Below are positions 2,881-51,506 of a stretch of DNA of 64,000 nt, piece by piece. The notes under the pieces were generated by a model. It searched no databases and was not told the DNA's origin. It saw only the letters and a program-made list of their open reading frames with translations. The position numbers were made by a program, and so were the translations under genes. This stretch comes from an uncultured bacterium (GTDB lineage Bacteria > UBA8481). The DNA lies in assembly GCA_964548165.1 (NCBI GenBank), contig CAZJQD010000008.1:1979-65978 (forward strand), written 5' to 3'. The first letter of the stretch is position 1; the number at the start of each line of letters is the position of its first letter.

Positions 2881-2939
2881 GGCGTGGCCCTAATGCCGTT
2901 TGCCAAAGGGTGGGGGGTCGCGCATAATCCTCGCCGGCG

Positions 2940-6496: not shown

Positions 6497-6518
6497 GCCC
6501 CCGCTTCGCCCCGTTGCC

Positions 6519-7991: not shown

Positions 7992-8012
7992 CGTGCCCAT
8001 CTACTATTCACG
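7987..8012. repeat. copy 1 of a duplicated 26-nt motif, ctagNgtgcccatctact… (partner at 8130-8155, which contains the gspF GTG start)
   Basis: ctagcgtgcccatctactattcacga versus ctagagtgcccatctactcgtatcga. A 13-nt exact core (gtgcccatctact) plus the ctag; 21 of 26 positions identical, 143 nt apart. Confidence 0.6.
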
Positions 8013-8039
8013 ACCATCCCGGCAAAGCCGGGCCGGTCG

Positions 8040-8072
8040 CCAAGGGGGGTGCACGAACAGCTCCCCCCTTGG
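8040..8072 (+). other. perfect 10-bp GC stem-loop in the gspE-gspF spacer (ccaagggggg-N13-ccccccttgg); no downstream U-tract
   Basis: Left arm 8040-8049, right arm 8063-8072, exact reverse complements. Preceded by a smaller hairpin cccggc-aaa-gccggg (8018-8032). Confidence 0.5.
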
Positions 8073-8129
8073 ACACCCCCCATCTCGCACTTGTAGATAT
8101 GGCAGGATCCTGTTCAGATTGAGCGGACA

Positions 8130-8155
8130 CTAGAGTGCCCATCTACTCGTATCGA
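8130..8155. repeat. copy 2 of the duplicated 26-nt motif; overlaps the gspF start codon
   Basis: See 7987-8012. Encodes the N-terminus VPIYSY of GspF. Copy 1 opens a 46-codon ORF (VPIYYSRP…) that ends at the TAG of this copy. Confidence 0.6.
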
Positions 8156-29175: not shown

Positions 29176-29191
29176 GAAGCAGGCGAAATCC

Positions 29192-31270: not shown

Positions 31271-31280
31271 GAGCGGCGCG

Positions 31281-33530: not shown

Positions 33531-34981
33531 TGTCCCTTGCCGACACCGCCAGGGGGCTGGATTCGCCCTACCGCATCGATGGAGGGCGCACGAATAGACC
33601 CATGGCCGGCGCCATGGGCGTGGTCTTCCTGGCCTTGGGAATCGTCCTGCTGCTGGCCGGGCAAGCCAGCTCGTCCGGTTCCTCCATGCTGGCGATCGCC
33701 ATCGTCAGCGTCATCGTCGTCCTCTTCACGCTCATCGACGTCGAGTTCGGCATCTATTGCCTTGTCGCGGGAATGCTGCTGTCGCCCGAGATCGAGCTGG
33801 ATTTCATCAGGCTTCCCTCGCGCGCCGTCGTCATTCGCGTGGACGACCTCATGATCCTCATGGTCAGCGCCGCCTGGTTCGCGCAGACCGCGGTGCGCGG
33901 CAAGATCGACCTGCTCATGAATACGCCCCTGAACCGGCCCATCCTCCTCTTCACGTTGCTCTCGGTGATATCCACGGTGAGAGGGTCCTTCACCGGCGCC
34001 GTCGGTTCCCCCATGACCGCGTTCTTCTTCGTCTTGAAGTTCGTCGAGTTCTTCCTGCTCTATTTTCTCATCGTCAACACGGTCACCAACGAGGAGGCCA
34101 TCAGGCGCATCATGAAGGCCTATTTCCTCACCCTGCTGGTCGTGGTGGCCTACGCCACGTGGAATGTTCTCATCGTGAAGACCCACGGCAGGGCCACGAC
34201 ACCCTTCGAGAGCTCGGAGGAACCCGGAACGCTCGGCGGCTACCTGCTCTTCTCCTTCGCCCTGGCCTTCGGCCTGCTCAACTACGTGCCTGGCATCGTC
34301 AGCAAGCTCTTCTATGGGGCCATCATGGTGGCCATCGTACCGCCCTTCCTGTACACGCTCTCCCGGGGATCCTACATGGCGTTCTTTCCGATGTTCCTGA
34401 CCGTGATCCTCTTGAGCCGCCGCAAGATCGTTCCGCTCATGCTCCTCGTCGTCACGGTCTTTGCCGCGCCCTACATGCCACAGGCCACCATAGAACGCGT
34501 GGAGTATACCTTTCAGAATCGGGTTGAGAACTTGTGGTCCAGCGATCCGGACGACAAGGTCGAGCTCGATCCTTCGTCCCTCGCGCGCCTCGAGCGGTAC
34601 GACGGGGTCATCCGCCAGTGGCAATACCAGCCGCTCCTGGGCCAGGGCGTGACCGGCGTTGGTTTCGTCGACAGCCAGATCATGCGCGTATTGGGCGAGC
34701 TGGGCATTCTCGGCCTGTTGACGCTCATCTGGATATTCAAGGCCTTGTTCCAGACGGCTCTTCGCATGTACCGCTGGTTGCCGCCCGGCTATTCCAAGGG
34801 GCTCGTGCTCGGCATGATCGCGGGTACCGCCGGCCTCATCTTTCACGGGGCCACGGCCAATACCTTCACGGTCGTGCGCATTGCCGGGCCGTTCTGGGTT
34901 ACCGCCGGTCTCACCGTCGTCATCTTCAAGATCCACGAGAAGGAACTTCTGCTCCAGGAGAGCCAGCAGCGTGCGGCTTGA
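33530..34981 (+). CDS. O-antigen ligase / Wzy-type polysaccharide polymerase family membrane protein
   Basis: ATG overlaps the wzc2 stop (TGATG). About 10-12 TM helices with a large periplasmic loop, typical of the Wzy_C/O-antigen ligase family. 483 aa. Confidence 0.65.
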   Translation: MSLADTARGLDSPYRIDGGRTNRPMAGAMGVVFLALGIVLLLAGQASSSGSSMLAIAIVSVIVVLFTLIDVEFGIYCLVAGMLLSPEIELDFIRLPSRAVVIRVDDLMILMVSAAWFAQTAVRGKIDLLMNTPLNRPILLFTLLSVISTVRGSFTGAVGSPMTAFFFVLKFVEFFLLYFLIVNTVTNEEAIRRIMKAYFLTLLVVVAYATWNVLIVKTHGRATTPFESSEEPGTLGGYLLFSFALAFGLLNYVPGIVSKLFYGAIMVAIVPPFLYTLSRGSYMAFFPMFLTVILLSRRKIVPLMLLVVTVFAAPYMPQATIERVEYTFQNRVENLWSSDPDDKVELDPSSLARLERYDGVIRQWQYQPLLGQGVTGVGFVDSQIMRVLGELGILGLLTLIWIFKALFQTALRMYRWLPPGYSKGLVLGMIAGTAGLIFHGATANTFTVVRIAGPFWVTAGLTVVIFKIHEKELLLQESQQRAA

Positions 34982-35180
34982 GGATGCGGCTCAATACCTG
35001 CTCATCCTCGCCGTCGTACTGGGCGTGTTTCTCTGGTTCTCGGTCGAATACTGGGAGCAGATCGTCGCGCCGACCTTCCAGACCATTGGCGCCTGGTTCC
35101 AGTTGCTCCGAGTGCCGGTCCTCGCGTTCTTCCTTCTCGGCCTGGCCTTTCTCCTCTTTCGCTTGAACGGCCCGAGGTGA
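34971..35180 (+). CDS. small two-TM membrane protein, hypothetical (69 aa, GTG start)
   Basis: In-frame GTG inside the track ORF 34881-35180. Two hydrophobic helices. Stop overlaps the proC GTG (GTGA). Confidence 0.3.
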   Translation: MRLEDAAQYLLILAVVLGVFLWFSVEYWEQIVAPTFQTIGAWFQLLRVPVLAFFLLGLAFLLFRLNGPR

Positions 35181-35986
35181 TCCCCGGCGTGCCCTGGATG
35201 TTCGCGGGCGGCGGGCGCATGGCCGGCGCCATGCTGCAGGGGCTGGTATCCCGCGGCGCCGTTGCGTCGTCGCTGGCGGTGGCCGATCCCGATCCCGCGA
35301 CGCGCGCCGCGCTGGGCCGGACCCTCTCCATGACACGCTTGCATTCCTCCGTCGAGACCATGGTGGGCGCGGAGTCCGGCGGCCTTGTCCTGGCCGTCAA
35401 GCCCCAGCAGATGGACGCCGTGCTCGCGGCCGTGGCGGGCCGTCACTTTCCGGTCGTCGTCTCGATTGCCGCGGGCATTCCGACGGCGCGTATCGAGCAG
35501 GCCCTGGCTCCCGGGACCCCCGTGGTCCGGGCCATGCCCAACACGCCCGCTCTCGTGGGCAAGGGGATCACGGCGATCGCCCCGGGACGCACCGCCGGGA
35601 GAGAAGCGATGGGCCTGGCCCGTGACCTCATGGGGGCGATCGGCGAGGTCGTGGAGCTGGCCGAGGATCAGATCGACGCCGTCACCGCGATCTCGGGATC
35701 GGGTCCCGCCTACTTCTTCCTCTTCATGCAGGCCCTCCAGGAGGCGGGCGTGGCGCTCGGTCTCGCTCCCGATGTCGCGCTCAGGCTGGTTCTCGGAACC
35801 GCCGAAGGGGCCGTGGCCCTGGCCCGGCACCAGGAGGGGGATTTTACCGCGATGATCGCGGCCGTCACCTCCAAGGGCGGCACCACCGAGAGAGCGCTCG
35901 AGGCGCTCCGCCGACGCGACCTGCCGGGCGCGGTCCGAGAGGGGGCCGAGGCAGCCGCCGCGCGGGCCCGGGAGCTGGCGGGATGA
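35177..35986 (+). CDS. proC: pyrroline-5-carboxylate reductase ProC
   Basis: N-terminal Rossmann region (MFAGGGRMAGAMLQGL…), P5CR dimerisation domain (…ISGSGPAYFFLFMQALQEAGVALGL…TSKGGTTERALEAL…). Start is either GTG 35177 or ATG 35198. Confidence 0.85.
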   Translation: MIPGVPWMFAGGGRMAGAMLQGLVSRGAVASSLAVADPDPATRAALGRTLSMTRLHSSVETMVGAESGGLVLAVKPQQMDAVLAAVAGRHFPVVVSIAAGIPTARIEQALAPGTPVVRAMPNTPALVGKGITAIAPGRTAGREAMGLARDLMGAIGEVVELAEDQIDAVTAISGSGPAYFFLFMQALQEAGVALGLAPDVALRLVLGTAEGAVALARHQEGDFTAMIAAVTSKGGTTERALEALRRRDLPGAVREGAEAAAARARELAG

Positions 35987-36291
35987 TCATCGCCGCCAAC
36001 GCATTGCATGGCCTGGCGCTCGTCCTCGATTTCATCCTCGGTGCCTATCTCTGGATCGTGATCGGCGCCGCGGTGGTCAGCTGGGTCGGCGCCGATCCGT
36101 GGAATCCCATCGTTCGCTTCCTGCGACAAGCCACGGATCCCGTCTATCGCCGGATCCGGCGGATGCTTCCGTTTCTCGCCTCGGGTGGCCTGGATTTCAC
36201 CCCCCTGGTCGTGATCGCGATCATCTACTTCCTGCAGGCCGCCCTGGTGGGCTCGCTCTATGACTATGCGAGGATCCTCAAACTTTCCTGA
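35983..36291 (+). CDS. yggT: YggT-family integral membrane protein
   Basis: ATGA overlap with proC. About 100 aa, 2-3 TM helices. Conserved proC-yggT linkage. Confidence 0.7.
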   Translation: MIIAANALHGLALVLDFILGAYLWIVIGAAVVSWVGADPWNPIVRFLRQATDPVYRRIRRMLPFLASGGLDFTPLVVIAIIYFLQAALVGSLYDYARILKLS

Positions 36292-36403: not shown

Positions 36404-37267
36404 GTGAGCGGATCTGAGGGACTCATCGGAGTCATCGGCGGCAGCGGCATCTACCAGATGGAAGGCCTCGTGGACGTGGAGGAGATCCGCGTCGACACGC
36501 CCTACGGATCGCCGTCCGACGCGATCATCCTGGGCACGCTCTCGGGACGCCGTTGCGCCTTTCTCCCGCGGCATGGCCGGGGGCACCGTCTCCTGCCGCG
36601 CGAAGTCCCCTCCCACGCCAATCTCTATGCCCTCAAGAGCCTCGGTTGCGACTGGGTGCTGGCGCTCTCGGCGGTTGGTTCGCTCAAGGAGGACGTCAGG
36701 CCCCGCGACGTCGTCATTCCCGACCAGGTCGTCGACGGGACGCGTCAGCGGCACGGTACCTGGTTCGGCGACGGGATCGTGGCTCACGTCTCGATGGCCG
36801 ATCCCTTCTGCCCCGTGCTCCGCCGCGCGCTCGTCGACAGCTGTCGCGCGCTCGGGGTGAGCGTGCACGACGGAGGAACCTACTACTGCATGGAGGGGCC
36901 GGCCTTCTCCACGAAGGCGGAATCCGCCGTGAACCGTTCCTTCGGCCACAGCGTCGTCGGCATGACCGCGCTCCCGGAAGCTCGGCTGGCCCGCGAGGCC
37001 GAGCTGGCCTACGCGCTCGTCGCGCTCTCCACGGACTACGACGTCTGGCACGAGTCGGGGGAGGTCTCCGTCGAACTCGTCCTGGAGAACCTGCACGCGA
37101 ACGCGCGCAACGTCCAGCGGATCGTCAAGGACGTGGTAGGGAAGATTCCCCGCGAGCGGACGAGCCCCGCGCACGAGGCTCTCCGGGGGGCGATCATGAC
37201 CGATCGCAAGCTCTGGCCGCCGGCCACCATCGAGCGGCTCGGGATCATCGTGGAGAAGTACGCGTGA
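36404..37267 (+). CDS. mtnP: S-methyl-5'-thioadenosine phosphorylase (MTAP/MtnP, PNP family)
   Basis: GTG with SD AGGAGG. IGVIGGSGIYQMEGL…LPRHGRGHRLLP…ALSAVGSL…HVSMADPFC…YYCMEGPAFSTKAES…VVGMTALPEARLAREAELAYAL. Confidence 0.85.
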   Translation: MSGSEGLIGVIGGSGIYQMEGLVDVEEIRVDTPYGSPSDAIILGTLSGRRCAFLPRHGRGHRLLPREVPSHANLYALKSLGCDWVLALSAVGSLKEDVRPRDVVIPDQVVDGTRQRHGTWFGDGIVAHVSMADPFCPVLRRALVDSCRALGVSVHDGGTYYCMEGPAFSTKAESAVNRSFGHSVVGMTALPEARLAREAELAYALVALSTDYDVWHESGEVSVELVLENLHANARNVQRIVKDVVGKIPRERTSPAHEALRGAIMTDRKLWPPATIERLGIIVEKYA

Positions 37268-38982
37268 GCGCGGCGTATGGCAAGGAACACCTGGGATCGC
37301 TCCTCGTGCGCGCCGGCGTCCTCAAGGAGTCGGATCTCAAGGCCGCCCTCGACGAAGCGCAGAGCGACAATCGCCGACTCGGCGACGTGCTGATAGCGCG
37401 GGGACTCACGACCGAGGACCAGATCCAGCACTTCCTCAGCATTCAGCTGGGCTACCCGACCATCGACCTCGATCGGACCTGGATCGACCCCGAGGTCGCG
37501 CACGCCCTGCCGGAAAAGTTCGCGCGCCGCTACGGCGTGCTTCCGCTCTACCGCGCCGACGCCTCGGGAGGCCAGGCCGTGGTCGTGGCCATGACCGATC
37601 CCACCGACATCGTGGTGCAGGACGAGATTCGCAACGCGCTCGGGCAGGAGATCTTCGTGGTGATGTGCCTTCCGCGCAGCGCCATGGATCGCCACCTCGA
37701 CCGCCTCTGGCTCTCCGCCCCCGTCGTCGTGGAGGAGCCCGCCAGCGCCGCGGTCACGGAGTCGGCGCCCCCGCTCCTGCCGCTGGGCGGCGAGGAACTC
37801 AAGCCCTCCGTCGCCAGGCTCCTGGAGACGCTCTTCAAGCAGGCCCTGGATCTGCGGGCGTCCTCCGTGCATCTCGAGCCCAAGCAGAAATTCGTCTCGG
37901 TTCGCTATCGCATCGATGGGCAGTACACCAACGTCACCTCGCTGCCCCGGGACCTCTACCAGGCCGTCTTGACGCGGCTCAAGATCCTCGGGAAGCTGAC
38001 GGTTGGCGAGGCCGTGCAGGTGCTCGAGGAGGGGCGCTTTCATCTCCGTCCCGACCTGGTGGCGCCGCCCATCGATATCCGCGTGAGCATCGTTCCCGCG
38101 CTCTTCGGCGAGAAAGTAGTCCTTCGGATCACGCGGCGCTCGGAGATCATCCGTCCCCTGGCGGACCTGGGGTTCGAGGCCGGGCAGACCAGGGAGCTGG
38201 ACGAGCTCCTGGCGGCCCCTGCCGGCCTGATCCTGGTTGCCGGAAAGAATGATTCCGGCAAGACCACGACCGCGTACTCGTGCCTCTCCGTGATGGGAGG
38301 ACCCTCGACGATGATCGTCACGATCGAGGATCCCCCTGCCTACCCGGTGTCGAGTTTCAACCAGTTGAGAAAAGTGCACCTGCCGGAGACCCCGGAGACC
38401 GCCGCCTGGGACATGACCGTCAAGGCGGTGGAGAGACAGGAGCCGAACCTCGTGTACATGTCGAGCGTGGAGACGCGTGACGAGGTCAAGATGATGCTCA
38501 GGCTCGCCGCAACCGGTCGGCGGGTCCTGGCCACGCTCTTCGCCGATGACGCCGTCTCCGCCCACTGGGTTGCTCTCCAGCTGGGCGCCGACTCGTTTGC
38601 CATCGGATCGGTTCTAGCCGGCGTGATCAACGCCCGCCTCGTCCGCCTGCTCTGCCCTCATTGCCGCCGCCCCGCCCAGGCGCCGCCGCCGGACGCCGTG
38701 CTCGCGCGGTTGGAGCTCACGCGCGACTGGTTGAAGGGGAAGACACTCTACGCCGCCGTCGGATGCGAACTGTGCGGCGGTCACGGGTACCTGGGCCGGA
38801 CCGGCGTCTTCGAGGTTTTGACCGTGAAGGAACATCTCCGGGAGATGGTCGAGTCCAAGGTGCCATCCGACCTCATGCGCCGAGCCGCGATCGAGGCCGG
38901 CATGATGCCGCTCAGGGAGGCCGGATTGGCCAAGGTCCTGCGCGGGGAGACCACCATCGAGGAACTCGCCAGCCGCATCTAA
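37264..38982 (+). CDS. GspE/PilB-family ATPase-like protein with an N-terminal MshEN (T2SSE_N) domain; both c-di-GMP-binding motifs intact, His-box degenerate (likely regulatory pseudo-ATPase or divergent ATPase)
   Basis: GTG start overlaps the mtnP stop (GTGA). MshEN 24-residue motifs HLGSLLVRAGVLKESDLKAALDEAQ and RLGDVLIARGLTTEDQIQHFLSIQ. P-loop VAGKNDSGKTTT. Asp box IEDPPAYP. Walker-B-like YMSSVETRDEV. His box LVLSTLHTNDA replaced by RVLATLFADDA. Tetracysteine CPHC…CELC retained. Confidence 0.8.
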   Translation: MSAAYGKEHLGSLLVRAGVLKESDLKAALDEAQSDNRRLGDVLIARGLTTEDQIQHFLSIQLGYPTIDLDRTWIDPEVAHALPEKFARRYGVLPLYRADASGGQAVVVAMTDPTDIVVQDEIRNALGQEIFVVMCLPRSAMDRHLDRLWLSAPVVVEEPASAAVTESAPPLLPLGGEELKPSVARLLETLFKQALDLRASSVHLEPKQKFVSVRYRIDGQYTNVTSLPRDLYQAVLTRLKILGKLTVGEAVQVLEEGRFHLRPDLVAPPIDIRVSIVPALFGEKVVLRITRRSEIIRPLADLGFEAGQTRELDELLAAPAGLILVAGKNDSGKTTTAYSCLSVMGGPSTMIVTIEDPPAYPVSSFNQLRKVHLPETPETAAWDMTVKAVERQEPNLVYMSSVETRDEVKMMLRLAATGRRVLATLFADDAVSAHWVALQLGADSFAIGSVLAGVINARLVRLLCPHCRRPAQAPPPDAVLARLELTRDWLKGKTLYAAVGCELCGGHGYLGRTGVFEVLTVKEHLREMVESKVPSDLMRRAAIEAGMMPLREAGLAKVLRGETTIEELASRI

Positions 38983-39025
38983 TTTTGTAACCCCGGGGCC
39001 CTAATCGGCCGATAGGTCGATCGAT

Positions 39026-41116
39026 ATGGGTTCGTGGGCTCGCATAGGCGCCTTGTCATTCCTCGCGTTCACCGCCGTGGGTGCCTTCGGCTACTACGGG
39101 CGGCAGGGGGGGCTCGATGCCGCCGCCGGGTTCTCGCTCATGGGCGCCGCGGTGGGGGCCGAGGCGCGGATCAAGGAAGTTCTCCAGGAAAATCCCTCGG
39201 ACATCGAGGCCTGGATGCAGCTTGGGGATTTCTACCAGGAACATCGCCGGCTTCCGGAGGCGCTGGGGGCCTATGAGCAGGCGGCCCTGATCTCGGCCGG
39301 CGAACCGGGTGCGGTCCTGCGCCTGGCACAGGTCCAGATTCGCCTTGGCGCGCTGCTCGACGCCGAGACGCGCGTGGCGGGGCTCCTGGCCGCGCGGCCC
39401 GTCGACTCGGCGGCCATCAAGGTGCTCGGATGGATCGCCGTTCACCGGGCCATGGATGGCGCCGTGGGGATCGATGGCCTGTCGCCCGATCCCGAGCGCC
39501 TGGCGGAGGCGGATCGCCGATTCGCACGCGCGCTACGCATTTCGCCCGACGACGCCGAGGCTTTCCTTGGCCGCGCGGTCGTGGCCAGGCTCGAGGGCCG
39601 CGATGTCTCCGCGCTCGCCCTGGCCGAGGAAGCCATCGATCGAGACAGCGCCTTGTATTGGCCCTGGCAGATCCGCGGCGAGATCCTGGTCGACCTGGGG
39701 CGCGATTCTGACGCCCAGGCCGCCCTGGCGGGCGCCCGGGCCCGGGATCGGGGCCGCCCCTACTCGCTCATGGAGATGGCCGCGCTCTCTCGTCGTCTCA
39801 AGCGCCCCGAAGAAGCCGCCGCGTTCATGGCGGGAGTCGGACCTGATGGCGCGTTCAATCGCGGCGCCGACCTCCTGGCCGCCAACAGGCCCGCCGAGGC
39901 CGAGGCGGCCTTCCTGGACGCGCTCCTCGCGGATCCCGAGGATGACCTGGCGATGGATCGGCTCGAGAGAGTCCGGCTCCTCATCTATCCGGCTGACGAT
40001 ACGCGGCGCGTGGAGCTTGCGGACCGGCGTCTTTTGAAGGCCGCCCGGTCCGAAGCGGTCAACAACACGCTCCTGGCCTACCTGCATTACCGCCGCGCCG
40101 TCGCCCTGGCGCCTCAGCTCTCCGAGGCTCGGCTCAAGATGGCCCGGTTCTTCGAGCGCCAGGGATCCTTCACCTCCGCGGTCACGCAGTTGCGTCGCGT
40201 CGAGGAGCTGACGCGGTCCCAGACCGAGCGGCTCGTGGCCTCGGACCTCCTCGAGATGATCACCCGGCGGGCGCTCACCGAGATGGAGTCGACTCATGCC
40301 GTGAGTTTCGGGGCGATCTGGGAACAGCCGACCGGGGTCCTGGGCGAGCTCGTGGGCAACCCCGAGGTCCTGGAGGAGCGAATACGATGGAGCGTGACGC
40401 CCGTGCCTCGGCCCAGGTTGCGCGTCGCCATCCTTCCTTTCGCCGAGGCCCTGAGGCCCTTTCACGCGGGGGTCGGCCGGTTGAGTGGGGAATGGCTGTC
40501 GGGAACGCTGGGCCTCCTGCCGGGCTTCGAGCTCATTCCTGCCGCCGAGGTCGAGGCGGCCATGGCGCGGCATGGATTCACCAATCCCGACGCGATCGAT
40601 CCGGGATTGCTGGGCAAGGAACTCGGCGCCGAGCTGATCGTGCGCGGGCGCATCCTGGAGGCGCGCGAGGACGTGACGCTCCGGGTCGAGGCGGTCCTCG
40701 TTCCCGTCGGCCCCGTGGTCTGGCGGCAGGAGTACGCGGTTCGAGGAGGTGAGGCGCTGACACGAACCATCCTCGAAGCTGCGCGCGCGCTCGCCTGGCA
40801 CGCGCCCCTGGAAGGGACCGTCGTCCGGCGCCGAGACCGGAACCTGGTCACGGTCAACCTGGGCCGGGCCTATGGCGTCCGCATCGGGGATACGATGGTG
40901 ATCGAACGGCGCGGGCTCGAACTGTTCGCCCCGGGATATGACTGGCCCGGCCGCCGCGCCGACGTGATCGGCGAAGGGAGGGTTGTGGGGCTGACGGAAC
41001 GCTATGCCGAAGTGCGCTTGTTGCCGACAACGACCCCGGCTTCGGGCGTAGAAGCCCGACCCTCGACGCCCACGCAACTCGTCCGCGCGGGCGATATCGT
41101 TCGTCGCCGGCGATAA
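39026..41116 (+). CDS. TPR-repeat protein with signal/TM anchor and an uncharacterised C-terminal alpha/beta domain, hypothetical
   Basis: N-terminal hydrophobic segment. About 350 aa of TPR-like Ala/Leu-rich repeats. C-terminal ~250 aa (…RLRVAILPFAEAL…VTVNLGRAYGVRIGDTMVIERRG…) of unknown family. Confidence 0.5.
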   Translation: MGSWARIGALSFLAFTAVGAFGYYGRQGGLDAAAGFSLMGAAVGAEARIKEVLQENPSDIEAWMQLGDFYQEHRRLPEALGAYEQAALISAGEPGAVLRLAQVQIRLGALLDAETRVAGLLAARPVDSAAIKVLGWIAVHRAMDGAVGIDGLSPDPERLAEADRRFARALRISPDDAEAFLGRAVVARLEGRDVSALALAEEAIDRDSALYWPWQIRGEILVDLGRDSDAQAALAGARARDRGRPYSLMEMAALSRRLKRPEEAAAFMAGVGPDGAFNRGADLLAANRPAEAEAAFLDALLADPEDDLAMDRLERVRLLIYPADDTRRVELADRRLLKAARSEAVNNTLLAYLHYRRAVALAPQLSEARLKMARFFERQGSFTSAVTQLRRVEELTRSQTERLVASDLLEMITRRALTEMESTHAVSFGAIWEQPTGVLGELVGNPEVLEERIRWSVTPVPRPRLRVAILPFAEALRPFHAGVGRLSGEWLSGTLGLLPGFELIPAAEVEAAMARHGFTNPDAIDPGLLGKELGAELIVRGRILEAREDVTLRVEAVLVPVGPVVWRQEYAVRGGEALTRTILEAARALAWHAPLEGTVVRRRDRNLVTVNLGRAYGVRIGDTMVIERRGLELFAPGYDWPGRRADVIGEGRVVGLTERYAEVRLLPTTTPASGVEARPSTPTQLVRAGDIVRRRR

Positions 41117-41187
41117 TCAAGGGAGTGCGGAACGGGTGGCAGGAAGTCGCTCCAAGGGCTAGGATATCCCTCGCCAGAGGCCTCTTG

Positions 41188-42456
41188 ATGACACCCCATT
41201 GCCAAGTCCCGTCCTCCCCGGGCCCCTCTTCGGGCGGACGTTTCGCTCCGGGCGCCCGCAAGCCCCGCCTGCTCCACCGGTCTGCCCGTGCCTCGATCGT
41301 GGCGTTCCTGGTGAGCTTGGCCTGTCACGAACCCGCCGCCGCCCGGATTGGATACGGGGTTGCGTCCATCGACGACGCCTCGACGCTCTGGGCTCAAACC
41401 TGGGAGATCAAGCTCGGTCTCGAGGCCGGCGCCAATTACCGGCTCGAGGGAAGCGATGTCACGGCCGTCAGGGTGCCCACCCAGATCCGCTACGGGTGGC
41501 GCGAGCGCCTGGAGTGGGGATTCCTCCTGCCCTTTCTCTACCAGCAGACCGACAATAATAAGTTCGACGGGAGCGGGATTGGCGATATTGCCATCGCCTT
41601 GAAATACCAGATGACGCAGGACGAGGAGAACTACCCGGCCACGGCCACGGAGGTACGCCTGGGCTACGGCGCGGGAACGGCCACGGCCAGCGACGCGCTC
41701 TCGATTGCGATCAACTACGCTGTCTCGAAGTCCTTCGGTGAGCGCGGCGTCGCCCACGGAAACCTGGGCTACACGTTCTTCACCGCCGATCGGCAGGACG
41801 TTCTCAGCTGGGGAGCCGCCTACGATTACCGCTTCCTGGAGACCTTGAGGGGATTCCTCGGGGTCAACTCGGGAAGCCAGATGATGCCCGGGGTGCGAAA
41901 TGACATCATCGCCGAGCTGGGCGTGACCAGGCAGGCCGGTCCCTCGCTCGAGTACCAGCTGGCCGCCGGGATCGGCCTGAACAAGAACAGCCCGGACTGG
42001 CAGGTGCGTTTCGGTTTTACCAAGGAGCTCGGGCGCGGGGCGGGCGAGGCCACGAATTTTCGCAGGGCCGAGTGGAGCCATCCGCCGGCGCCGGGGGCCG
42101 CCGAGATCGTGGCGCGGGGAGAGAATGCGGCACGAACGGGCGATTACACCCTGGCCATATCGTACTATCGCGAGGCGATCACCATCGACTCGTCGCTCCC
42201 CTCGGCCTGGAACAACATGGGAATCGCCTACTTCAAGCTGGGCCGCACGACCGAGGCCATGGAGGCCTATGAAAACGCGGCTAAGCTTGCGCCCGACAAT
42301 GCCGACATATACTTCAACATGGGACTCGCTCATTACAAGTTGGGAGACATCTATGCCGCCCGGCGGGCATTTGCGCGCGCGCTGGAACTGAACCCCGAGC
42401 ACGGGCAGGCGCGGAGCAACCTCTTGTCCCTGGAAGGACGCACGGGAGCGCGATGA
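41188..42456 (+). CDS. predicted outer-membrane beta-barrel protein fused to C-terminal TPR repeats, hypothetical
   Basis: N-terminal half has alternating-hydrophobicity beta-strand pattern with aromatic girdle residues (…YRLEGSDVTAVRVPTQIRYGW…, …QVRFGFTKEL). C-terminal three TPRs (…AWNNMGIAYFKLGRTTEAMEAYENAAKLAPDNADIYFNMGLAHYKLGDIYAARRAFARALELNPEH…). Start uncertain. Confidence 0.45.
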   Translation: MTPHCQVPSSPGPSSGGRFAPGARKPRLLHRSARASIVAFLVSLACHEPAAARIGYGVASIDDASTLWAQTWEIKLGLEAGANYRLEGSDVTAVRVPTQIRYGWRERLEWGFLLPFLYQQTDNNKFDGSGIGDIAIALKYQMTQDEENYPATATEVRLGYGAGTATASDALSIAINYAVSKSFGERGVAHGNLGYTFFTADRQDVLSWGAAYDYRFLETLRGFLGVNSGSQMMPGVRNDIIAELGVTRQAGPSLEYQLAAGIGLNKNSPDWQVRFGFTKELGRGAGEATNFRRAEWSHPPAPGAAEIVARGENAARTGDYTLAISYYREAITIDSSLPSAWNNMGIAYFKLGRTTEAMEAYENAAKLAPDNADIYFNMGLAHYKLGDIYAARRAFARALELNPEHGQARSNLLSLEGRTGAR

Positions 42457-42890
42457 AAAACCTGATCATTATTGCCCTGGTTCTTGCCGCGGGCTGGTTC
42501 GGCTGGCAGAAGTTCACCCAGGGATACTGGGCCTCCGCCACGGCCAGGGACTTCGTCGAGGAACTGCGCCTCGGGATGGACAGCGGTTACCTCTCCAAGG
42601 CGATCAGCAGCTGGCAACCCCCGCTCCCGGAGAAGCAGCTGACGCTTCCGGCCGAGGGGATATCACCGGATTTCACGGTGACCATGGACAGCGAGCCCGT
42701 CCAGATCGCCGGGCGCACGACGATCTACTACCTCGTCACGTTCGGGAAGTCGCCCGTGGCCACGGGCGGTCGAAGCCTGCGCTACGAGTATCGCCTTACG
42801 CTCGTCAACGAGGGGACGAATTTCATCCCCAAGTGGACGACGGTCATGTTTCATCCCACGTCTCGCCGTGCGAATCGCGACGCGGCCTGA
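42453..42890 (+). CDS. small secreted/membrane-anchored hypothetical protein
   Basis: ATGA overlap with the upstream gene. N-terminal signal-anchor MKNLIIIALVLAAGWFGW. Confidence 0.45.
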   Translation: MKNLIIIALVLAAGWFGWQKFTQGYWASATARDFVEELRLGMDSGYLSKAISSWQPPLPEKQLTLPAEGISPDFTVTMDSEPVQIAGRTTIYYLVTFGKSPVATGGRSLRYEYRLTLVNEGTNFIPKWTTVMFHPTSRRANRDAA

Positions 42891-45153
42891 CGCCCTCCGC
42901 GTTCCCGTGAGGACTCCAGGCCATTCCGCCGGCACGGTCCTCGCCCTGTTCCTTCTCGTCGTTTCGGCCGGAGGCCTTGCCGAGGCCGCGTCGCAGAGCG
43001 TGCAGTTGCAGCAAGCGCGGCGGCTCTTCGAGGCCGGTCGCTACGCGCAGGCGATCGGGGAGTTCCGGCGGATCGCCGCGAGCGGTGAGAACACATCCGA
43101 GGCCGTGATCGCCGGGTACTACGTGGGGCTGACCGAGGAGAGGCGCGGCAACCGCGATGGCGCCATCACGGCCTATCGGGCGCTCTTGTCGCGCCATGGA
43201 GAATCCACGGAGATGGCGGGTTTCGCGCGCCAGAGGCTCAGGGAGCTCGAGTCCGGGGCGCCGCCTCGTGCGGCCGAGGTCTCCGACGCCGCCGTTGCCC
43301 CCGCGGTGCCGGCGCCCGACGTGACTACCACCGCGGCGCCGACGGCGGTCGATCGCCTCGCGCAGTCCGTGCTCTCGGACATCATGAGCAGCGATCGCGG
43401 CGCGGCACGCGTGTCGCGTCGCGCTCCGCCGTCTCGCCGCTCGCCTCGCCCGATCGCGGCGTCGCCGGCCCCCGTCTGGCCGAGCGCCGGGGGCGGATCC
43501 TCCTCCGCAGGAGCGGATTTTCCCGTCGCGCCCGAAGCGAGCTTTCCGATCGCGTCGGCCCTGGGCCCTGTTCCGGGCCCCTCGGCGATGGCACCCCGCT
43601 ATCCCTCTCCGTCCGCGGTGCCGGATTACCCCCTGGTGACCAGCATCACGTGGGGCCAGGGGGCAAGCGCCCCCTCCCGCGGCACGCTAGCCACATCCTC
43701 ACCGGACGCCACCATGGAGCCCGCTGCTGTCCAGTCCACCGGGTATCAACCCCTGGGCGAGGATGTCGCACGAGCCACTCACGTGCGCCGATCGATGCCG
43801 ACGACGGCGTTGGCGACGGACGTCTCGTCGCCCGGCGCTGGGCGACCGGTGGCTGCCTCGACGGCGCCAGTCGTGACCTGGGAAGTGTCGGTGGAGCCGG
43901 CCGCATCACCGGTGACACGCCCGGCGGGGCGAGTTCCCCCTCCAGCCTCGGGCACTGCGCTCGGTGGACCTCGAGGTTTTGCATGGCCGCAAGGCGATCC
44001 GGAGGGACTTCCTCCACTCGGGGCCTCCAGGCCCTCGTTCTCGCCGATCGCCATTCCGGCTGATGTGCCGTCGCTCTTGGGGTCCGATCCGCGCTCCGCT
44101 GGCGGATCACCTTCCCCGCTACCGGCGCCGCGTTCAGCGTCCCCGACCCCGGCGCCAGGAGGCGAGGTTGGCCCAGCGCAGGTGCCCCCCCCGTCTCCGG
44201 TCCCGGCGCCGCTCCCCGCCGCGCGTCCTGAAGATCGCGCCGCCGCTCTCGGAACTGCGCCTTGGGCGGGACTTTCCGTTGGAGCGCCGGTTGGTGTCTC
44301 TCTGCCCGCGCTCACGGTCGAGGAATTGGCCCCTGCTCCCCAGGTCAATCCTTCACCGACACCGCAGGCCGCGACGGCGCCGGTTCAGCCCCTGGAGGGG
44401 TGGTTGCTTCCCAGCCCCTCCGCGGTATCCCCGATCTCCCAGGATCCCTATTCCCTTCCCGCCCCTCTGCCGGCCAGCGGCGGTTCCGTCGGCGGTGACT
44501 TCGGCGATCTATCCCTTCCTTCGCCGTCCTTGACCGCGAGTGTCGGCATTCCCTCGGGCGCCCGGCCACCCTCGGTGAGCGCCCTCGATCAACCCCTGGC
44601 GCCGATCGAGCTGGCCCCGACCGGTGTCCCGGGTCAGACGCTCGCCGCGCCCGGTCCCTCGGCGCCCTGGGTCGAGAAGGCGCTCTCGTTGAAGCGGTTG
44701 GGACAATATCCCGAGGCGATCGAGGCCTACCGCCAGGCGCTCCTCGTGGACACCGGGAATCCCGTCGTCTTGAACAACCTTGCCGATCTCCTGGTGGAGC
44801 AGGGCGGGGACCTCGACGAGGCGATCCGGCTCGTCAAGGACGCGCTCGCCGCGGAGATCGCCGATCGGGGACCCTATTTTTCGACCCTGGGATGGGCCTA
44901 CGCGCGTCGTGGCGACCTGGACGAGGCGGAAAAATATCTCGACGAGGCCGTCAGAGTCGCGGCGACGGCCAGCCGGCTTTATCGTCGCGGCAGGGTCTAC
45001 GCCGCCCTGGGGCAGGCTGCGAGGGCCAGGGCCGACTTCGATCGGGCGCTCGTGTATGCTGAGGACGCCGCCACGGCTTCGCTGGTGCGCCAGGCCCTGG
45101 CGGAGATGGATCAACCGATCCCGGGTCAAGGAACACCCGGGATCATCCGATAA
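42868..45153 (+). CDS. secreted TPR protein with a ~450-aa Pro/Ser/Ala-rich low-complexity core, hypothetical
   Basis: Signal peptide (…AGTVLALFLLVVSAGGLAEA). N-terminal TPR-like repeats. Long PxxP/SP-rich disordered region. C-terminal TPRs (…ALSLKRLGQYPEAIEAYRQALLVD…). Alternative GTG start at 42907. Confidence 0.5.
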   Translation: MRIATRPDALRVPVRTPGHSAGTVLALFLLVVSAGGLAEAASQSVQLQQARRLFEAGRYAQAIGEFRRIAASGENTSEAVIAGYYVGLTEERRGNRDGAITAYRALLSRHGESTEMAGFARQRLRELESGAPPRAAEVSDAAVAPAVPAPDVTTTAAPTAVDRLAQSVLSDIMSSDRGAARVSRRAPPSRRSPRPIAASPAPVWPSAGGGSSSAGADFPVAPEASFPIASALGPVPGPSAMAPRYPSPSAVPDYPLVTSITWGQGASAPSRGTLATSSPDATMEPAAVQSTGYQPLGEDVARATHVRRSMPTTALATDVSSPGAGRPVAASTAPVVTWEVSVEPAASPVTRPAGRVPPPASGTALGGPRGFAWPQGDPEGLPPLGASRPSFSPIAIPADVPSLLGSDPRSAGGSPSPLPAPRSASPTPAPGGEVGPAQVPPPSPVPAPLPAARPEDRAAALGTAPWAGLSVGAPVGVSLPALTVEELAPAPQVNPSPTPQAATAPVQPLEGWLLPSPSAVSPISQDPYSLPAPLPASGGSVGGDFGDLSLPSPSLTASVGIPSGARPPSVSALDQPLAPIELAPTGVPGQTLAAPGPSAPWVEKALSLKRLGQYPEAIEAYRQALLVDTGNPVVLNNLADLLVEQGGDLDEAIRLVKDALAAEIADRGPYFSTLGWAYARRGDLDEAEKYLDEAVRVAATASRLYRRGRVYAALGQAARARADFDRALVYAEDAATASLVRQALAEMDQPIPGQGTPGIIR

Positions 45154-45249
45154 CGGCAGGGGAGGGTGCCTCGGCATCGTGAACCGCTTGCGACCGCGAC
45201 GGTCGTGGCGTCTTCAGGATACCGGGCAACGCAGAGAACGAGGCTGATC

Positions 45250-48120
45250 ATGCACGCATACCACATCCGGCTCATGAGGACGATCCTGGTTCTCTTTTTC
45301 ATGGGACTCACCGCGATCCTCCCGGCCCTGGCCCAATCCTCGGCGGGCGCGGGCAACATGGCGGCCCTGGCGCGCACCCATTATCAATTGGGCGTGCAGT
45401 ACGAGCGTGGCGGCCAGCCCGGCAAGGCGATCGACGAGTATCGCAGCGCATTCGAGGCCGACCCCACGCTCCTTGATGCCTATATCCAGTGCGGCAATCT
45501 CCTGGTGCGTAGCCAGCGGTTCACGGAGGCGGCCGAGGTGTACCGTCGCGCCGCGCAGGTGGATCGACGCCGCGCCGACCTCCAGCTCGTGCTGGGGGAC
45601 ATCTACCGCCAGCTCAACGACACGCGGGCCGCGCGCGACGCCTACTCCGCCGTTCTCGCCCTGGAGCCCCAGCACCCGAAGGCGACCCTGGAACTGGCGC
45701 GCCTGCAGATGAAGAGCGGCGCCTGGGCCGAGGCCGTTCGCGTCCTGGACGCGAACCGCGCCTTGTCCAACGATCCCGGAGCCCTGGCGGTTCGTGCCTA
45801 CTCCGAGCATCGCCTGGGGCGACTGGATATCGCCGCCCAGCTCTACGAGCGGCTTCTCGAAGCCAACCCGGAGAATGGCGATGCGCGCCTCAACCTGGGC
45901 ATCGTGGAGGCGGCCCGGGGCCGTACGGCCGAGGCCGTGGCGCAGTTCCAGCGCGCGACGCTCCTCGTCTCGGATAAGGCCCAGGCCTATCGCTACCTGG
46001 GCATGGCCCAGCTCGAAGCGGGCCGCGATCACGACGCGCTTGAGAGTCTCCGGCGCGCGGTCAGCGAGAACGGCTCCGATGTGGCCGCCCGCTACCGCCT
46101 GGCCCAGGTGCTCGTCAAGCTCTCCCGCCCGGTCGAGGCCGTTCAGCAGTTGGAGACCCTGCGTTCCTCCTCGGGAAACTTTCCCGAGCTGAGCGCGCTG
46201 CTGGGCCGGGCACTCCTGGCGGCGGGCCAAGTGCAGAGGGCGCGCGCCGAATTGGAGCGCGCTCATGCGGACAATCCCGGGGACACCGAGGTCACGCTGG
46301 CCCTGGCTGAGACCCTGCAGAAGGTTGGAGAGACGCGGCGGTCGCTGGAATTGTACGAGGCCGTGATCGCGCGCCGCAACGCACCGGCATTCGCCTACCG
46401 ATCCGTGGCCGACCTGCATGCCTCGCTCGGTGACGCCGTGCGCGCTCTCGAGTATGAGCGTGCGTACCAGGACCGGCGCCAGCGCGAGGACATCACGGAG
46501 GCGGTCAGCACCGAGCGTCGCTCCTGGCAGATGCGTCTCGACGAGACGCGGAGCAACCTGGAGCGCCAGCTGGCGGAGACGCGTCGCAGTGCCGACGAGC
46601 GCGTGCGCGCCGCCGAGGCGCGGGCCCAGGAGGCCTCGGTCGCGGCCCGCACCCAGGCGCGGGCCTGGGACACGGCGGCGGAGTGGGCTCGGCTCCAGCG
46701 CCAGGTCGATGAGCGCGTGGCGGAGATTCGCCGCGAGATCGAGACCCAGTACGGGGCGCGACCGAACGGCACGCCGGCGGGCACGAGCGCGCCCGTTCCG
46801 GTCGGCACGGGAGTGCCTCAGTCCCTGGCCGATGCGCGCCGGGCCGTGGACCTGGCCGAGCAGAGGGCGATGGCGGCGGAGAACGAGCTGCGCCGCCTTC
46901 GCGAGGGGCGACTGGACACCAGCGCCCAGGCGGAGATCTGGGCGGCGCGCGCCGCTTCCGAGCAGGCGCGGCAGAAGATCCTCGAGCTCTCGGCCGCGAT
47001 CGAGCGTGAGCGCGCGACGAGGGAAGAAGCGCAGGCGGGGGCCGAGCGCGTCCGCGCCGAGGCGACACGCGAAGTGCTCTCGATGCGCGCCCTCGTGGAG
47101 GGCGTGGATGCCGAGGTATGGCGTGGCCTGGGTGAGATTCGCGCGGACACCACGAATCTCCAGAACGAGGATCCGCTGGCGCGCCTGAAGTTCTATGTCC
47201 AGAACGTCCGGCTCTCGGCCGACGCCCGGGTCTCGCGGGCCCAGCTTGCGGCCGAGCAGAGGCTCAACGAGGCCAGGACGCGCGCGGAGTCGCAGGTGGA
47301 GCGCATTCTCCGCGACGCCCAGGGCCAGGTTGATCGAGCCCGCGTCCAGGCCGCCGAGGAGGTTCGGCGCAGTCAGCAGGCCGCGGATTCGCAGGTTGCG
47401 CAGAGGGTGTCGCAGGAGCGGGAGCGCCTCGCCTCGGAGGCCCTGGCCCGGCGGATGGCCCAGGCCGAGCAGTTGCGGGCAAGCATCGAGGCGGATGCCC
47501 AGGTGCGGTTCCTCGAGGAGAAGGCCCAGATCGAGGCCACGTACGAGGCCGATCGCATCCGCATGCAACGGGAATACGACCAACAGCTCGAGCGCTTCCA
47601 GTCCGAGTACCAGCGTCGCCTCGAGGCGGCTCAGGCCGAGTCGCGGCGCGCGAGCGAGCAGGTCGAGGCGCTGACCCGGAACGACACGGGCCTGTTGATG
47701 CGCTCCGAGGTCTACCAGAGGCTCGTTCGCGAGAATGCGATGGTCCGCGAGGATCTCGCCGGCGCTCGGCGAAGGCTCGAAGAGATGGGCCGCGACAAGG
47801 AAGACCTGGTTCGCGAAGCGGACGGGCTCCGGCGCGAGTTCGCCAACGTCCAGGCGCGGTTGGCGGCCCTGGAGCAGGAGTCGCGGCGCTTCTCGGGGAT
47901 CGAGGTCCTGGCCGAGCCCCTGCGCGCCGGCGTCGACCTCAATGCCGCCACGCTCGCGGAGCTCCAGGCGCTTCCCGGGGTCGGCATCCAGGAGGCGCGC
48001 AACATCGTCTGGTATCGTGAGAATGTCGGGCCGTTCCGCTCGACCGAGGAGCTCGTCAAGGTGCCGGGCTTCGAGGCCGCCAAGGCCCAGGCCATCCGCG
48101 CCCTCGTACGCGTCCGCTGA
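45250..48120 (+). CDS. secreted TPR + long coiled-coil protein ending in a ComEA-type helix-hairpin-helix DNA-binding domain (paralog 1)
   Basis: Signal peptide MHAYHIRLMRTILVLFFMGLTAILPALAQS. TPR block. About 500 aa Arg/Glu/Ala-rich coiled coil. C-terminal …VDLNAATLAELQALPGVGIQEARNIVWYRENVGPFRSTEELVKVPGFEAAKAQAIRALV, collinear with the ComEA HhH consensus (LNTA…EL..LPGIG…A.AI..YRE.NG.F.S.EDL.KV.GIG.K). Confidence 0.6.
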   Translation: MHAYHIRLMRTILVLFFMGLTAILPALAQSSAGAGNMAALARTHYQLGVQYERGGQPGKAIDEYRSAFEADPTLLDAYIQCGNLLVRSQRFTEAAEVYRRAAQVDRRRADLQLVLGDIYRQLNDTRAARDAYSAVLALEPQHPKATLELARLQMKSGAWAEAVRVLDANRALSNDPGALAVRAYSEHRLGRLDIAAQLYERLLEANPENGDARLNLGIVEAARGRTAEAVAQFQRATLLVSDKAQAYRYLGMAQLEAGRDHDALESLRRAVSENGSDVAARYRLAQVLVKLSRPVEAVQQLETLRSSSGNFPELSALLGRALLAAGQVQRARAELERAHADNPGDTEVTLALAETLQKVGETRRSLELYEAVIARRNAPAFAYRSVADLHASLGDAVRALEYERAYQDRRQREDITEAVSTERRSWQMRLDETRSNLERQLAETRRSADERVRAAEARAQEASVAARTQARAWDTAAEWARLQRQVDERVAEIRREIETQYGARPNGTPAGTSAPVPVGTGVPQSLADARRAVDLAEQRAMAAENELRRLREGRLDTSAQAEIWAARAASEQARQKILELSAAIERERATREEAQAGAERVRAEATREVLSMRALVEGVDAEVWRGLGEIRADTTNLQNEDPLARLKFYVQNVRLSADARVSRAQLAAEQRLNEARTRAESQVERILRDAQGQVDRARVQAAEEVRRSQQAADSQVAQRVSQERERLASEALARRMAQAEQLRASIEADAQVRFLEEKAQIEATYEADRIRMQREYDQQLERFQSEYQRRLEAAQAESRRASEQVEALTRNDTGLLMRSEVYQRLVRENAMVREDLAGARRRLEEMGRDKEDLVREADGLRREFANVQARLAALEQESRRFSGIEVLAEPLRAGVDLNAATLAELQALPGVGIQEARNIVWYRENVGPFRSTEELVKVPGFEAAKAQAIRALVRVR

Positions 48121-48121
48121 A

Positions 48122-48150
48122 CCTCAGCCGACGGACTGAGGATTTCGGGA
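48122..48150 (+). terminator. weak hairpin (cctcag-N8-ctgagg) plus atttc, immediately after the stop of the first ComEA-like gene; possible attenuator or terminator
   Basis: 6-bp stem at 48122-48127 / 48136-48141. Short, interrupted U-tract. Low confidence. Confidence 0.2.
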
Positions 48151-48187
48151 GTCTGCCGCCGACTTTTGCTATGATGCCGGGCAGGTC

Positions 48188-49747
48188 ATGAAGAGCTTCG
48201 CCTTGCCATCGGTAGTCCTCGTCCTCGCGCTCACCTCGCTTGCGGTTCCCGCCGTGGCGCAGGCGGCCGTCTCCCCCCGTGACACGACGCTGGCCGAGAT
48301 GGCCGCGGGTCTTCGAGCCAGCGACGAGGCGGTTCGCCGCATCGTCGAGCGCGCGATGGCGGCCGTGGAGCTCGCCGAGGCGCGCGCCAACCGCGAGGTG
48401 GCCCTCGCCCAGATTCGGATTGCCGATCTCGAGCGCGCCGTGGCGGCCCAGGGCGCGGAGATCGAGGCCTGGAAGCAGTCCGAGGCCGAGCTGGGGATCG
48501 CGTTGAATGCATCGCTGGCCGAGGCGGATCGCCATGCGCGGGAGGCCAGCGCCGCGGTTATGGAGCGCGATGATGCCCGGGCGCAACTGGCCGCCGCGCG
48601 CCTGGAATTGGCGGCGCTTGCCGAGTGGCGGGACACGGCGACGCGGGCCACGGCCCAGGCGCGTCGCGCGCTCGCGGAACGCGAGGAGCTGGCCGAGCGC
48701 CTCTCGGCCATGCATGCCCAGTTCGGTCTCAGTGAGCAAGCCGTGACGGAGGCGCGGGCGCGGGCGGAGGCCCTGGTCGCGCTCTACGGGGATACGCTGG
48801 CGGCCCTGGGCCGCGAGAACGAGACGCTGCGGGCCAGCATCGGCCAATTCCAGGATCGCATCCAGGCCTACCAGCACCGATCCGGCGTGATGGAGGAATC
48901 CTTGCGACAAGAGGCAGCCCGCGCCGCGTCCTGGGAGACCGCGATCGTCGAGATGCGGGCTCGGGTGGCGGAACATGACCGCGTCCTGGCGGAGGAACGA
49001 TCGGCCAGGGCTTCGGAGCGGCGCCAACTGGCGGACAGCCTGGCCTGGGAACGCGGGCGGGCAGCCGATCTCGGTCGGGCCCTGGACGCGGAGCGGGCGA
49101 GGCTAGGCGACCTCGAGGCGCGGCACGCCGCGTTGACGGAATCCGAGCGGGCGGCGCGCGCGGCCCTGGCGGCGGGCGCGGGATTGACCGAGACCGTCAA
49201 CGCCGTCATGGCCGAGCGTGATGCGCTGAGGATCGAACTCCAGAGCACGGTGCAGGTCCTGAACGATGCGGCGACCGCGCTGGCATCGGCGCGCGCCGAG
49301 CGGGACGAGGCCCGGCGCGGCATCGCTCCCGTAATGCCCTCGGAGGCGTCGCAGGTCGCATTGCTCGAGGCTCGACTGGCGGCCCGTGACCGCGAGATCG
49401 CGGCGCTTCGCCAGGCCCTGCTGGCCGTCTCCTCGCCACTGTCCCCTGGCGCTGTCGTCACCGTGCCGGTCGAGACCGCGCCGCCCGTGGCCGCCACGCC
49501 GGTCGTGATCCCGCCGGCTCCGGTCGTCCCGCCTGAAGTCCCGGCCTATGATTTTGACCCGATGCGCGGAAGTTATGACGACCTGGCCTCCATTCCCGCC
49601 GTGGGACCGACGCGGGCGCGGGCCATCGTCTGGTATCGCGAGAACGTGGGGCCGATTCGCGGCGAGAACGATCTCAAGTCCGTCCCTGGTTTCAACGATG
49701 ATCGGATCAGGCTGTTGCGCCCCTTCTGGCGCTCGAAGGAGAACTGA
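48188..49747 (+). CDS. secreted coiled-coil protein ending in a ComEA-type HhH domain (paralog 2)
   Basis: Signal peptide MKSFALPSVVLVLALTSLAVPAVAQA. About 400 aa coiled coil, Pro-rich linker. C-terminal …YDDLASIPAVGPTRARAIVWYRENVGPIRGENDLKSVPGFNDDRIRLL shares the signature AIVWYRENVGP(F/I)R…(K/S)VPGF with paralog 1. Confidence 0.6.
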   Translation: MKSFALPSVVLVLALTSLAVPAVAQAAVSPRDTTLAEMAAGLRASDEAVRRIVERAMAAVELAEARANREVALAQIRIADLERAVAAQGAEIEAWKQSEAELGIALNASLAEADRHAREASAAVMERDDARAQLAAARLELAALAEWRDTATRATAQARRALAEREELAERLSAMHAQFGLSEQAVTEARARAEALVALYGDTLAALGRENETLRASIGQFQDRIQAYQHRSGVMEESLRQEAARAASWETAIVEMRARVAEHDRVLAEERSARASERRQLADSLAWERGRAADLGRALDAERARLGDLEARHAALTESERAARAALAAGAGLTETVNAVMAERDALRIELQSTVQVLNDAATALASARAERDEARRGIAPVMPSEASQVALLEARLAARDREIAALRQALLAVSSPLSPGAVVTVPVETAPPVAATPVVIPPAPVVPPEVPAYDFDPMRGSYDDLASIPAVGPTRARAIVWYRENVGPIRGENDLKSVPGFNDDRIRLLRPFWRSKEN

Positions 49748-49750
49748 ACG

Positions 49751-50200
49751 ATGACCAACCTGCGAAGCGTGGTGACCCTGGGTATCCTGGCGGCGGTCCT
49801 GGCGTCTGCGGCCTGCACGGCGCCACAGACCCAGGCCGACCCGGCTTCGTCCGGCGGCGATATCAACTATCTTCAGCCCCTGCAGACCTCGCCCGAACTG
49901 CGCATCCGCGACCTGCCTGTCCCCGCCGGATTCACGTACAAGGCCGATCGCTCGGTCATCCTGGAGTATGGACCGACGCTGGCGGCGACTCTTCTGTACG
50001 AGGGAAGCTCCTCGATCGGCGATGTCATCGCGTTCTATCGGCGCGAGATGGAGAAGTTCGAGTGGACGACGAAGGCCGTCTTCGAGCGTGAGGAGGTCAA
50101 GATGATCTTCACGAAGGAAGGCCGCTACTGCGCGGTGACGTTGCGCGGGTCTTCCGGCCTGGGCCGGCGCACCACCATCACCATCGATTACGTCCCCTGA
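49751..50200 (+). CDS. lipoprotein, hypothetical
   Basis: MTNLRSVVTLGILAAVLASAAC: canonical lipobox L-A-S-A-A-C. 149 aa. Confidence 0.5.
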   Translation: MTNLRSVVTLGILAAVLASAACTAPQTQADPASSGGDINYLQPLQTSPELRIRDLPVPAGFTYKADRSVILEYGPTLAATLLYEGSSSIGDVIAFYRREMEKFEWTTKAVFEREEVKMIFTKEGRYCAVTLRGSSGLGRRTTITIDYVP

Positions 50201-50213
50201 TCCCGTTCCATCC

Positions 50214-51506
50214 GTGACGGGGACCCGCTCGTTGTTTTTCCAGGGAGTTCTCATCGCGGCACTGCACCTGGTCGCGACCGGAACGGTAGCCGCCGAGCCG
50301 ATGCCCAGCGATGCCTGGTTTGCCGCCGTCGGACGCGGCGATATCGCAACAGTGAGAGCGATGGTTTCCGCCGGCGCGACGGTCGATGTTCCCAGCCGCG
50401 TCCTGGGTCGCACGGCACTCATCCTGGCGGCCAGTTTCGGACACGGGGAACTCTGCCAGGTCCTTCTCGATGCGGGAGCATCGGTCGAGGCTCGAGAGTC
50501 GCGGACGGGGCGTACGGCTCTCCATTACGCGGCGCGTTCCGGGTTCCGGGACATCGTGGATCTGCTCCGGCAACGAGGCGCCAATCCGAAGCGCCGCGAT
50601 GAGCTATCCGGTCTCGACGCCGCCGGATTCGCATTAATGGGCGGTCATGATGCGCTGGCCCGCGAGCTGGCCGGGACGGTGCACGTCCCGCCGCCGACGG
50701 CGGGATTCGCTTCGCCACCATCTCCTCCGGTGGTCCATCGGCCGGAAGGGCGCGGTGAGCCGGAGGCCGCGGTCGCGCGCCCGGACTCCGTCGCCGCCAC
50801 GCGGCACGTGTCGGCACCGCGTTCCGATTCCCCCCTGCGCTCGGATGACGACGGCGAGACCCTGCCGCTTGCGTGGTTGTGGGACACGGCCCCGGCGGGA
50901 GGCGCGCAGGGACTCCTTGATGCGGCCGTATTCGAGGGAGTTCGCGCCTATAGCGTCGCCGCCGTCGACTCCGCGTTGGCCGCCGGAGGGCGCGTCGATG
51001 GTCGGGACTGGGACGGCTTCACGCCCCTCTTCCTCGCCGTGCTCCGCAACGACTCGAACATGGTGCGGGCACTCCTGGAGCGGGGCGCCGTGGCGGAGAC
51101 CCGCGATCGCGTCGGCTGGACACCGCTCCTGCATGCCGCGTGGAAAGGGTATGCGAGCATCGTGCGCATCCTCGTCAACCACGGCGCCCTCGTCGAGGCG
51201 CGCGGCGTGGATTCGTCGACAGCCCTGCACCTGGCGGCGGAGCGCAATCACTACCAGGCGATCGAGACGCTCATCGATTTGGGATCGCGCGTGAACCTGA
51301 GGACCCGGGACAACCGCTATGTCGGCTGGACACCGCTCATGATCGCCGCCGCCCGCGGTAACGATGTCTCGGTCGGCTACCTGCTGCGGGCTGGCGCAAA
51401 GCCGAACCTTCGCGGGCAGAACGGGTGGACGGCCCTTAAGGCGGCCTTCATGAATTATCGCACCATGGCGGCCGAGATCCTCAGGATGCACGGCGCGGAG
51501 ATGTAG
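50214..51506 (+). CDS. secreted ankyrin-repeat protein
   Basis: Signal peptide. At least six ankyrin repeats (…GRTALILAASFGHGELCQVLLDAGASV…, …GWTPLLHAAWKGYASIVRILVNHGALV…, …GWTPLMIAAARGNDVSVGYLLRAGAKPN…). Confidence 0.75.
   Translation: MTGTRSLFFQGVLIAALHLVATGTVAAEPMPSDAWFAAVGRGDIATVRAMVSAGATVDVPSRVLGRTALILAASFGHGELCQVLLDAGASVEARESRTGRTALHYAARSGFRDIVDLLRQRGANPKRRDELSGLDAAGFALMGGHDALARELAGTVHVPPPTAGFASPPSPPVVHRPEGRGEPEAAVARPDSVAATRHVSAPRSDSPLRSDDDGETLPLAWLWDTAPAGGAQGLLDAAVFEGVRAYSVAAVDSALAAGGRVDGRDWDGFTPLFLAVLRNDSNMVRALLERGAVAETRDRVGWTPLLHAAWKGYASIVRILVNHGALVEARGVDSSTALHLAAERNHYQAIETLIDLGSRVNLRTRDNRYVGWTPLMIAAARGNDVSVGYLLRAGAKPNLRGQNGWTALKAAFMNYRTMAAEILRMHGAEM

Follow-up and report, generated by a model that had tools for sequence, protein, structure and literature searches.

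A rare, conserved gene neighbourhood encoding a probable PilB/MshE-derived pseudo-ATPase, an exported or membrane-anchored TPR protein and, in one subclade, a tightly coupled downstream operon

The analysed window, a stretch of 64,000 nucleotides from an uncultured bacterium, carries a block of ten co-directional plus-strand genes that a sequence-only reading had placed at 37264-51506, and all of the open reading frames were found at those positions. The block comprises mtnP (S-methyl-5'-thioadenosine phosphorylase; 36404..37267, plus strand), which matches PNP_UDP_1 and TIGR01694 (317 bits vs a cut-off of 275), and nine genes designated here g1 to g9. The GTG start of g1 (37264) overlaps the TGA stop of mtnP, matching the GTGA coupling described earlier, and the reported spacers of 43, 8, -4, -23, 12, 67, 3 and 13 nt were reproduced with longest-ORF starts. 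The spacer list depends on these starts, and since those of g3 and g6 are uncertain, the true distance to the preceding gene could be ~60-170 nt for g3 and 96 nt for g6. All of the initial domain calls were recovered with Pfam and NCBIfam, and the absence of any pilin, platform protein or secretin from the block was confirmed. The co-directional run is real, but its extent had been understated, as it reaches from an SMC gene (23014) to the ankyrin gene (51506).

The housekeeping genes proC and yggT (35177..36291, plus strand) lie between mtnP and a group of exopolysaccharide (EPS) genes. According to Pfam and NCBIfam, the latter (27844..34981, plus strand) encode a Wza of the XrtA/PEP-CTERM exporter type (TIGR03027, 200.5 bits vs a cut-off of 180), two Wzc paralogues and a Wzy_C membrane protein. 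Synteny of this group extends to the related loci L002, L005, L008, L009, L094 and L097; L003 and L010, both of which carry g1 and g2, lack it. A polysaccharide deacetylase, methyltransferases and a GT2 are encoded just 3' of the block on the opposite strand. A complete, separate T2SS (GspC-D-E-F) with its own intact ATPase is located at 2928-9340, 30 kb upstream of the block; as the earlier reading held, the block itself is no broken-off part of a canonical T4P or Com system. It has no synthase and no PelD-like or ComEC-like genes, and neither a c-di-GMP riboswitch nor any other Rfam element was present in the Rfam search.

g1 (37264..38982, plus strand) encodes a 572-aa PilB/MshE-derived protein with Pfam matches to MshEN (57 bits) and T2SSE (226 bits; the canonical GspE elsewhere in the window reaches 456 bits), and its top PDB match is Thermus PilF. 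Its family consists of 22 proteins (P0001-P0022) with 46-100% identity, followed by a sharp drop to 33-36% for ordinary PilB; two members are named by their sources as Candidatus Hydrogenedentota. Alignment bore out the description of this ATPase as degenerate. Its Walker A motif is a variant, GKNDSGKT (canonical GPTGSGKT; 38242..38265, plus strand), and the GxxxxGK[ST] pattern is retained in 20 of the 22 members, the Lys being replaced by Met in P0017 and P0018. The His box (38512..38553, plus strand) reads TGRRVLATLFADDA in place of the canonical TGHLVLSTLHTNDA, with both canonical His positions substituted in all 22 members, and the Walker B Glu position shows no conserved acidic residue across the family. 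g1 retains the PilB/MshE fold together with the zinc-binding cysteines and, for the most part, the P-loop; the family shows no variation at the four Cys, at the Walker A glycines or at the Asp-box Glu. With a mean column identity of 62% and conserved lengths, the family is, judging from its alignment, under purifying constraint. Since the residues required for ATP hydrolysis have been lost, g1 is a pseudo-ATPase, most likely a nucleotide-binding switch or sensor and not a pilus or secretion motor.

Two 24-residue MshEN motifs, defined according to PMC5013675, were aligned to residues 9-61 of g1 (37288..37446, plus strand). In motif I, HLGSLLVRAGVLKESDLKAALDEA, Arg is replaced by His and Gln by Ala, and these polar contact residues are missing from all 21 family members that carry the motif (P0003 is N-terminally truncated, so that MshEN motif counts rest on 21 of the 22 proteins). 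Motif II, RLGDVLIARGLTTEDQIQHFLSIQ, is canonical, as it is in 21 of the 22 members, and the motif spacing is retained. The earlier designation of g1 as c-di-GMP-sensing is thus favoured by motif II and by an above-threshold match to the NCBIfam model NF053729 (c-di-GMP_motif, 50.9 bits vs a cut-off of 38), but not by motif I; with the site half canonical, c-di-GMP sensing is plausible at most. The NCBIfam NfrB and EpsG models match residues 7-136 and 9-81 of g1, respectively, showing that MshEN-like segments also occur fused to EPS enzymes.

g2 (39026..41116, plus strand) encodes an exported or membrane-anchored TPR protein of 696 aa with Pfam TPR matches and a cytoplasmic exposure of at most ~6 residues. 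Its C-terminal module (40286..41116, plus strand) is composed of an alpha/beta domain of the TolB-N/PelC/LpoB/CsgG/FlgO type followed by a FlgT_C/F1-crown-like beta-barrel, and the best fold matches of g2 include TolB and LpoB. PelC, CsgG and FlgT make periplasmic rings beneath the outer membrane from such folds.

g3 (41125..42456, plus strand) encodes a predicted outer-membrane beta-barrel (residues ~75-320; Phenol_MetA_deg, 26.4-27.2 bits vs a Pfam cut-off of 22) followed by three near-consensus TPRs, also matched by Pfam, and its orthologues, 388-398 aa long, begin to align at residue ~50. The 145-aa g4 protein (42453..42890, plus strand) has an N-terminal hydrophobic anchor and orthologues in L002, L005, L009 and L013 (33-42% identity). 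g5 (42868..45153, plus strand) combines a signal peptide, N-terminal and C-terminal TPRs and an intervening Pro/Ala/Ser-rich linker of ~450 aa, and only its two TPR ends are conserved in relatives. In g6 (45166..48120, plus strand; 984 aa, with an ATG at 45250 as the likelier start), a signal peptide is followed by a TPR region of ~380 aa, a charged, coiled-coil-type stretch of ~475 aa and, at the C-terminus, an HHH_3 domain, which is retained in the full-length orthologues P0121 and P0122. g7 (48188..49747, plus strand) starts with a signal peptide and a coiled-coil-type stretch of ~370 aa, continues with a Pro-rich linker and ends in an HHH_3 domain; it has orthologues in L011 and L013 (31-34% identity). 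The claim of ComEA-type helix-hairpin-helix (HhH) domains in these two proteins held up: both exceed the Pfam HHH_3 cut-off of 27 bits (g6, 47929..48108, plus strand, 61.7 bits; g7, 49571..49726, plus strand, 34.5 bits), they share 47% identity over 53 aa, and their PDB matches include ComEA (8dfk/8dss at 5e-8 to 7e-8 for g6, besides EEPD1 9yi2 at 1e-17; 8dss at 3.6e-7 for g7). g8 (49751..50200, plus strand) encodes a putative lipoprotein of 149 aa (…LASAAC…) with orthologues of 43-44% identity and a weak precomputed PF27226 match, and its single-sequence structure model is unreliable (pLDDT 53.9); neither g4 nor g8 matches a family in Pfam or NCBIfam. g9 (50214..51506, plus strand) encodes an ankyrin-repeat protein (Ank_2, 178.7 bits) with an N-terminal signal-like segment; its orthologues in L011 and L013 (~30% identity) are found at the corresponding position. 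Domains of the TPR, ankyrin and coiled-coil kinds are poor guides to function.

mtnP is positioned directly 5' of g1 in all 11 orthologous loci, g2 follows g1 on the same strand in all nine loci with enough sequence (49-100% identity), and the three genes occur together in every checkable relative. The ten-gene module proposed earlier is partly reflected in relatives with ~58-59% g1 identity, where the order of g2-g9 is retained, but in the more distant L003, L010, L094, L095 and L098 only mtnP-g1-g2 persist and unrelated genes come after g2. The window, L011 and L013 share the same order of the genes g3-g9, with overlaps of 1 or 4 nt at the L013 junctions; in L002 and L009 only g3-g6 are visible in order before the DNA ends. 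The genes g3-g9 are restricted to one subclade, where they form a tightly coupled operon that is sometimes apart from g1-g2. The block is therefore a composite of separable units, neither one co-inherited unit nor one machine, and the neighbourhood, which probably comes from uncultured Hydrogenedentota, is rare, conserved and assembled of known parts. Synteny also takes in a distant S8 peptidase and the housekeeping genes proC and yggT, kept upstream of mtnP in most relatives, so simple sharing of gene order by related genomes may account for some of the conservation.

We tentatively favour, at somewhat less than even confidence, a nucleotide-sensing regulator encoded beside an EPS-linked periplasm/outer-membrane scaffold, which DNA-binding coiled-coil proteins would extend in one subclade. 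The block would consist of a family-wide unit A (mtnP, g1 and g2) and a unit B confined to that subclade (g3-g9), a putative translationally coupled operon of exported proteins. g1 would serve as a cytoplasmic switch with ATP/ADP and possibly, via the half-canonical MshEN site, c-di-GMP as its ligand, and would control the activity state from the cytoplasmic side. g3, whose barrel would sit in the outer membrane and whose TPR tail would reach into the periplasm, and g5, as a Pro-rich TPR spacer, may form with g2 a TPR-based scaffold across the periplasm and outer membrane, beside the XrtA/PEP-CTERM-type Wza-Wzc-Wzy pathway, with g4 as a small anchored protein. g6 and g7 would project from this scaffold as long stalks with heads that bind DNA or polyanions, tethering DNA to the envelope or matrix, and the block may have an eDNA or matrix role. 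Some observations fit this reading poorly: g1 is predicted to be cytoplasmic and g2-g9 all have N-terminal export or anchor segments, with no evident physical link to g1; g1 is coupled more tightly to mtnP than to g2; the Wza cluster is missing in two g1-g2 loci; and the contacts of MshEN motif I are lost.

A rather unlikely, though still serious, alternative is that there is no functional module and the genes are neighbours through conserved synteny. g1 would then belong to a housekeeping operon yggS-proC-yggT-mtnP-g1, g2 would act on its own in the periplasm as a Tol-Pal/CpoB/Lpo-type factor coordinating peptidoglycan with the outer membrane, and g3-g9 would be a distinct operon for envelope structure with no relation to g1 or EPS. 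The conserved mtnP/g1 junction (gap of -4 to +14 nt) is consistent with this, as is the variable g1-g2 spacing (43-365 nt, or one gene, or 6 kb); in L005 and L098 the two genes are no longer adjacent, and in L005/L011 a 6-kb insert carrying opposite-strand genes lies between them. Likewise, g3-g9 are missing from five loci and preceded by a gene other than g2 in L013, unrelated genes are also syntenic, yggS-proC-yggT are directly upstream in L010, and the TolB and LpoB fold matches of g2 are accompanied by weak matches of g5 and g6 to YbgF/CpoB models (NCBIfam). In Pseudomonas, yggS-proC-yggT adjoin pilT. Nevertheless, the persistence of g2 on the same strand 3' of g1 in nine of nine loci, while later genes change, is unexpected from drift alone, and the g1 and g2 families are both rare and, as far as members are named by sources (three proteins in all), of one lineage.

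It is improbable that the block is a DNA-uptake accessory system. In such a system, g6 and g7 would be oversized periplasmic receptors or ratchets for DNA of the ComEA type, entry through the outer membrane would be by way of g3 or the nearby secretin, and g1 would be a regulatory remnant of the competence or pilus ATPase. The HHH_3 scores, ComEA as top bacterial PDB match, the signal peptides of g6 and g7, the secretin-containing T2SS cluster in the same window and a prepilin peptidase close to g1-g2 in L010 would suit such a role. However, the ComEA equivalog TIGR01259 reaches only 47 and 27 bits vs a cut-off of 152, the block has no comEC, comF, dprA or pilin genes, most g1-g2 genomes are without the HhH proteins, a coiled coil of 370-475 aa combined with a TPR array is not known from any characterised ComEA, and the secretin cluster scores as GspC-D-E-F and not as Com or T4P. 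Least probable, and very much so, is that g1 is a working, unusual assembly ATPase with structurally compensated motif changes and the rest of its filament or secretion system elsewhere in the genome: its full-length resemblance to PilF and PilB, the GxxxxGK[ST] pattern in most members and the invariant Asp-box Glu and zinc cysteines speak for this, against which stand the lost His-box histidines and Walker B Glu, the two members without the P-loop lysine, a T2SSE score half that of the canonical paralogue, and the absence of a platform protein, pilin or secretin adjoining g1 in all 11 loci.

For the favoured reading, a regulator beside an envelope scaffold, the proposed arrangement of g2, g3 and g5 would have its analogue in PelB-PelC, which combines TPR, porin and ring and in which a PelC dodecamer ring sits on the PelB barrel (PMC12141448). 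Nevertheless, in g3 the barrel precedes the TPRs, the opposite of the order in PelB, PgaA and BcsC, and g2 lacks the lipobox that PelC, LpoB and CsgG possess. Regarding g1, the M. xanthus PilB, whose regulation of EPS depends neither on ATP hydrolysis nor on pilus assembly (PMC5544727; PMC11656802), provides a precedent for such a protein as a regulator.

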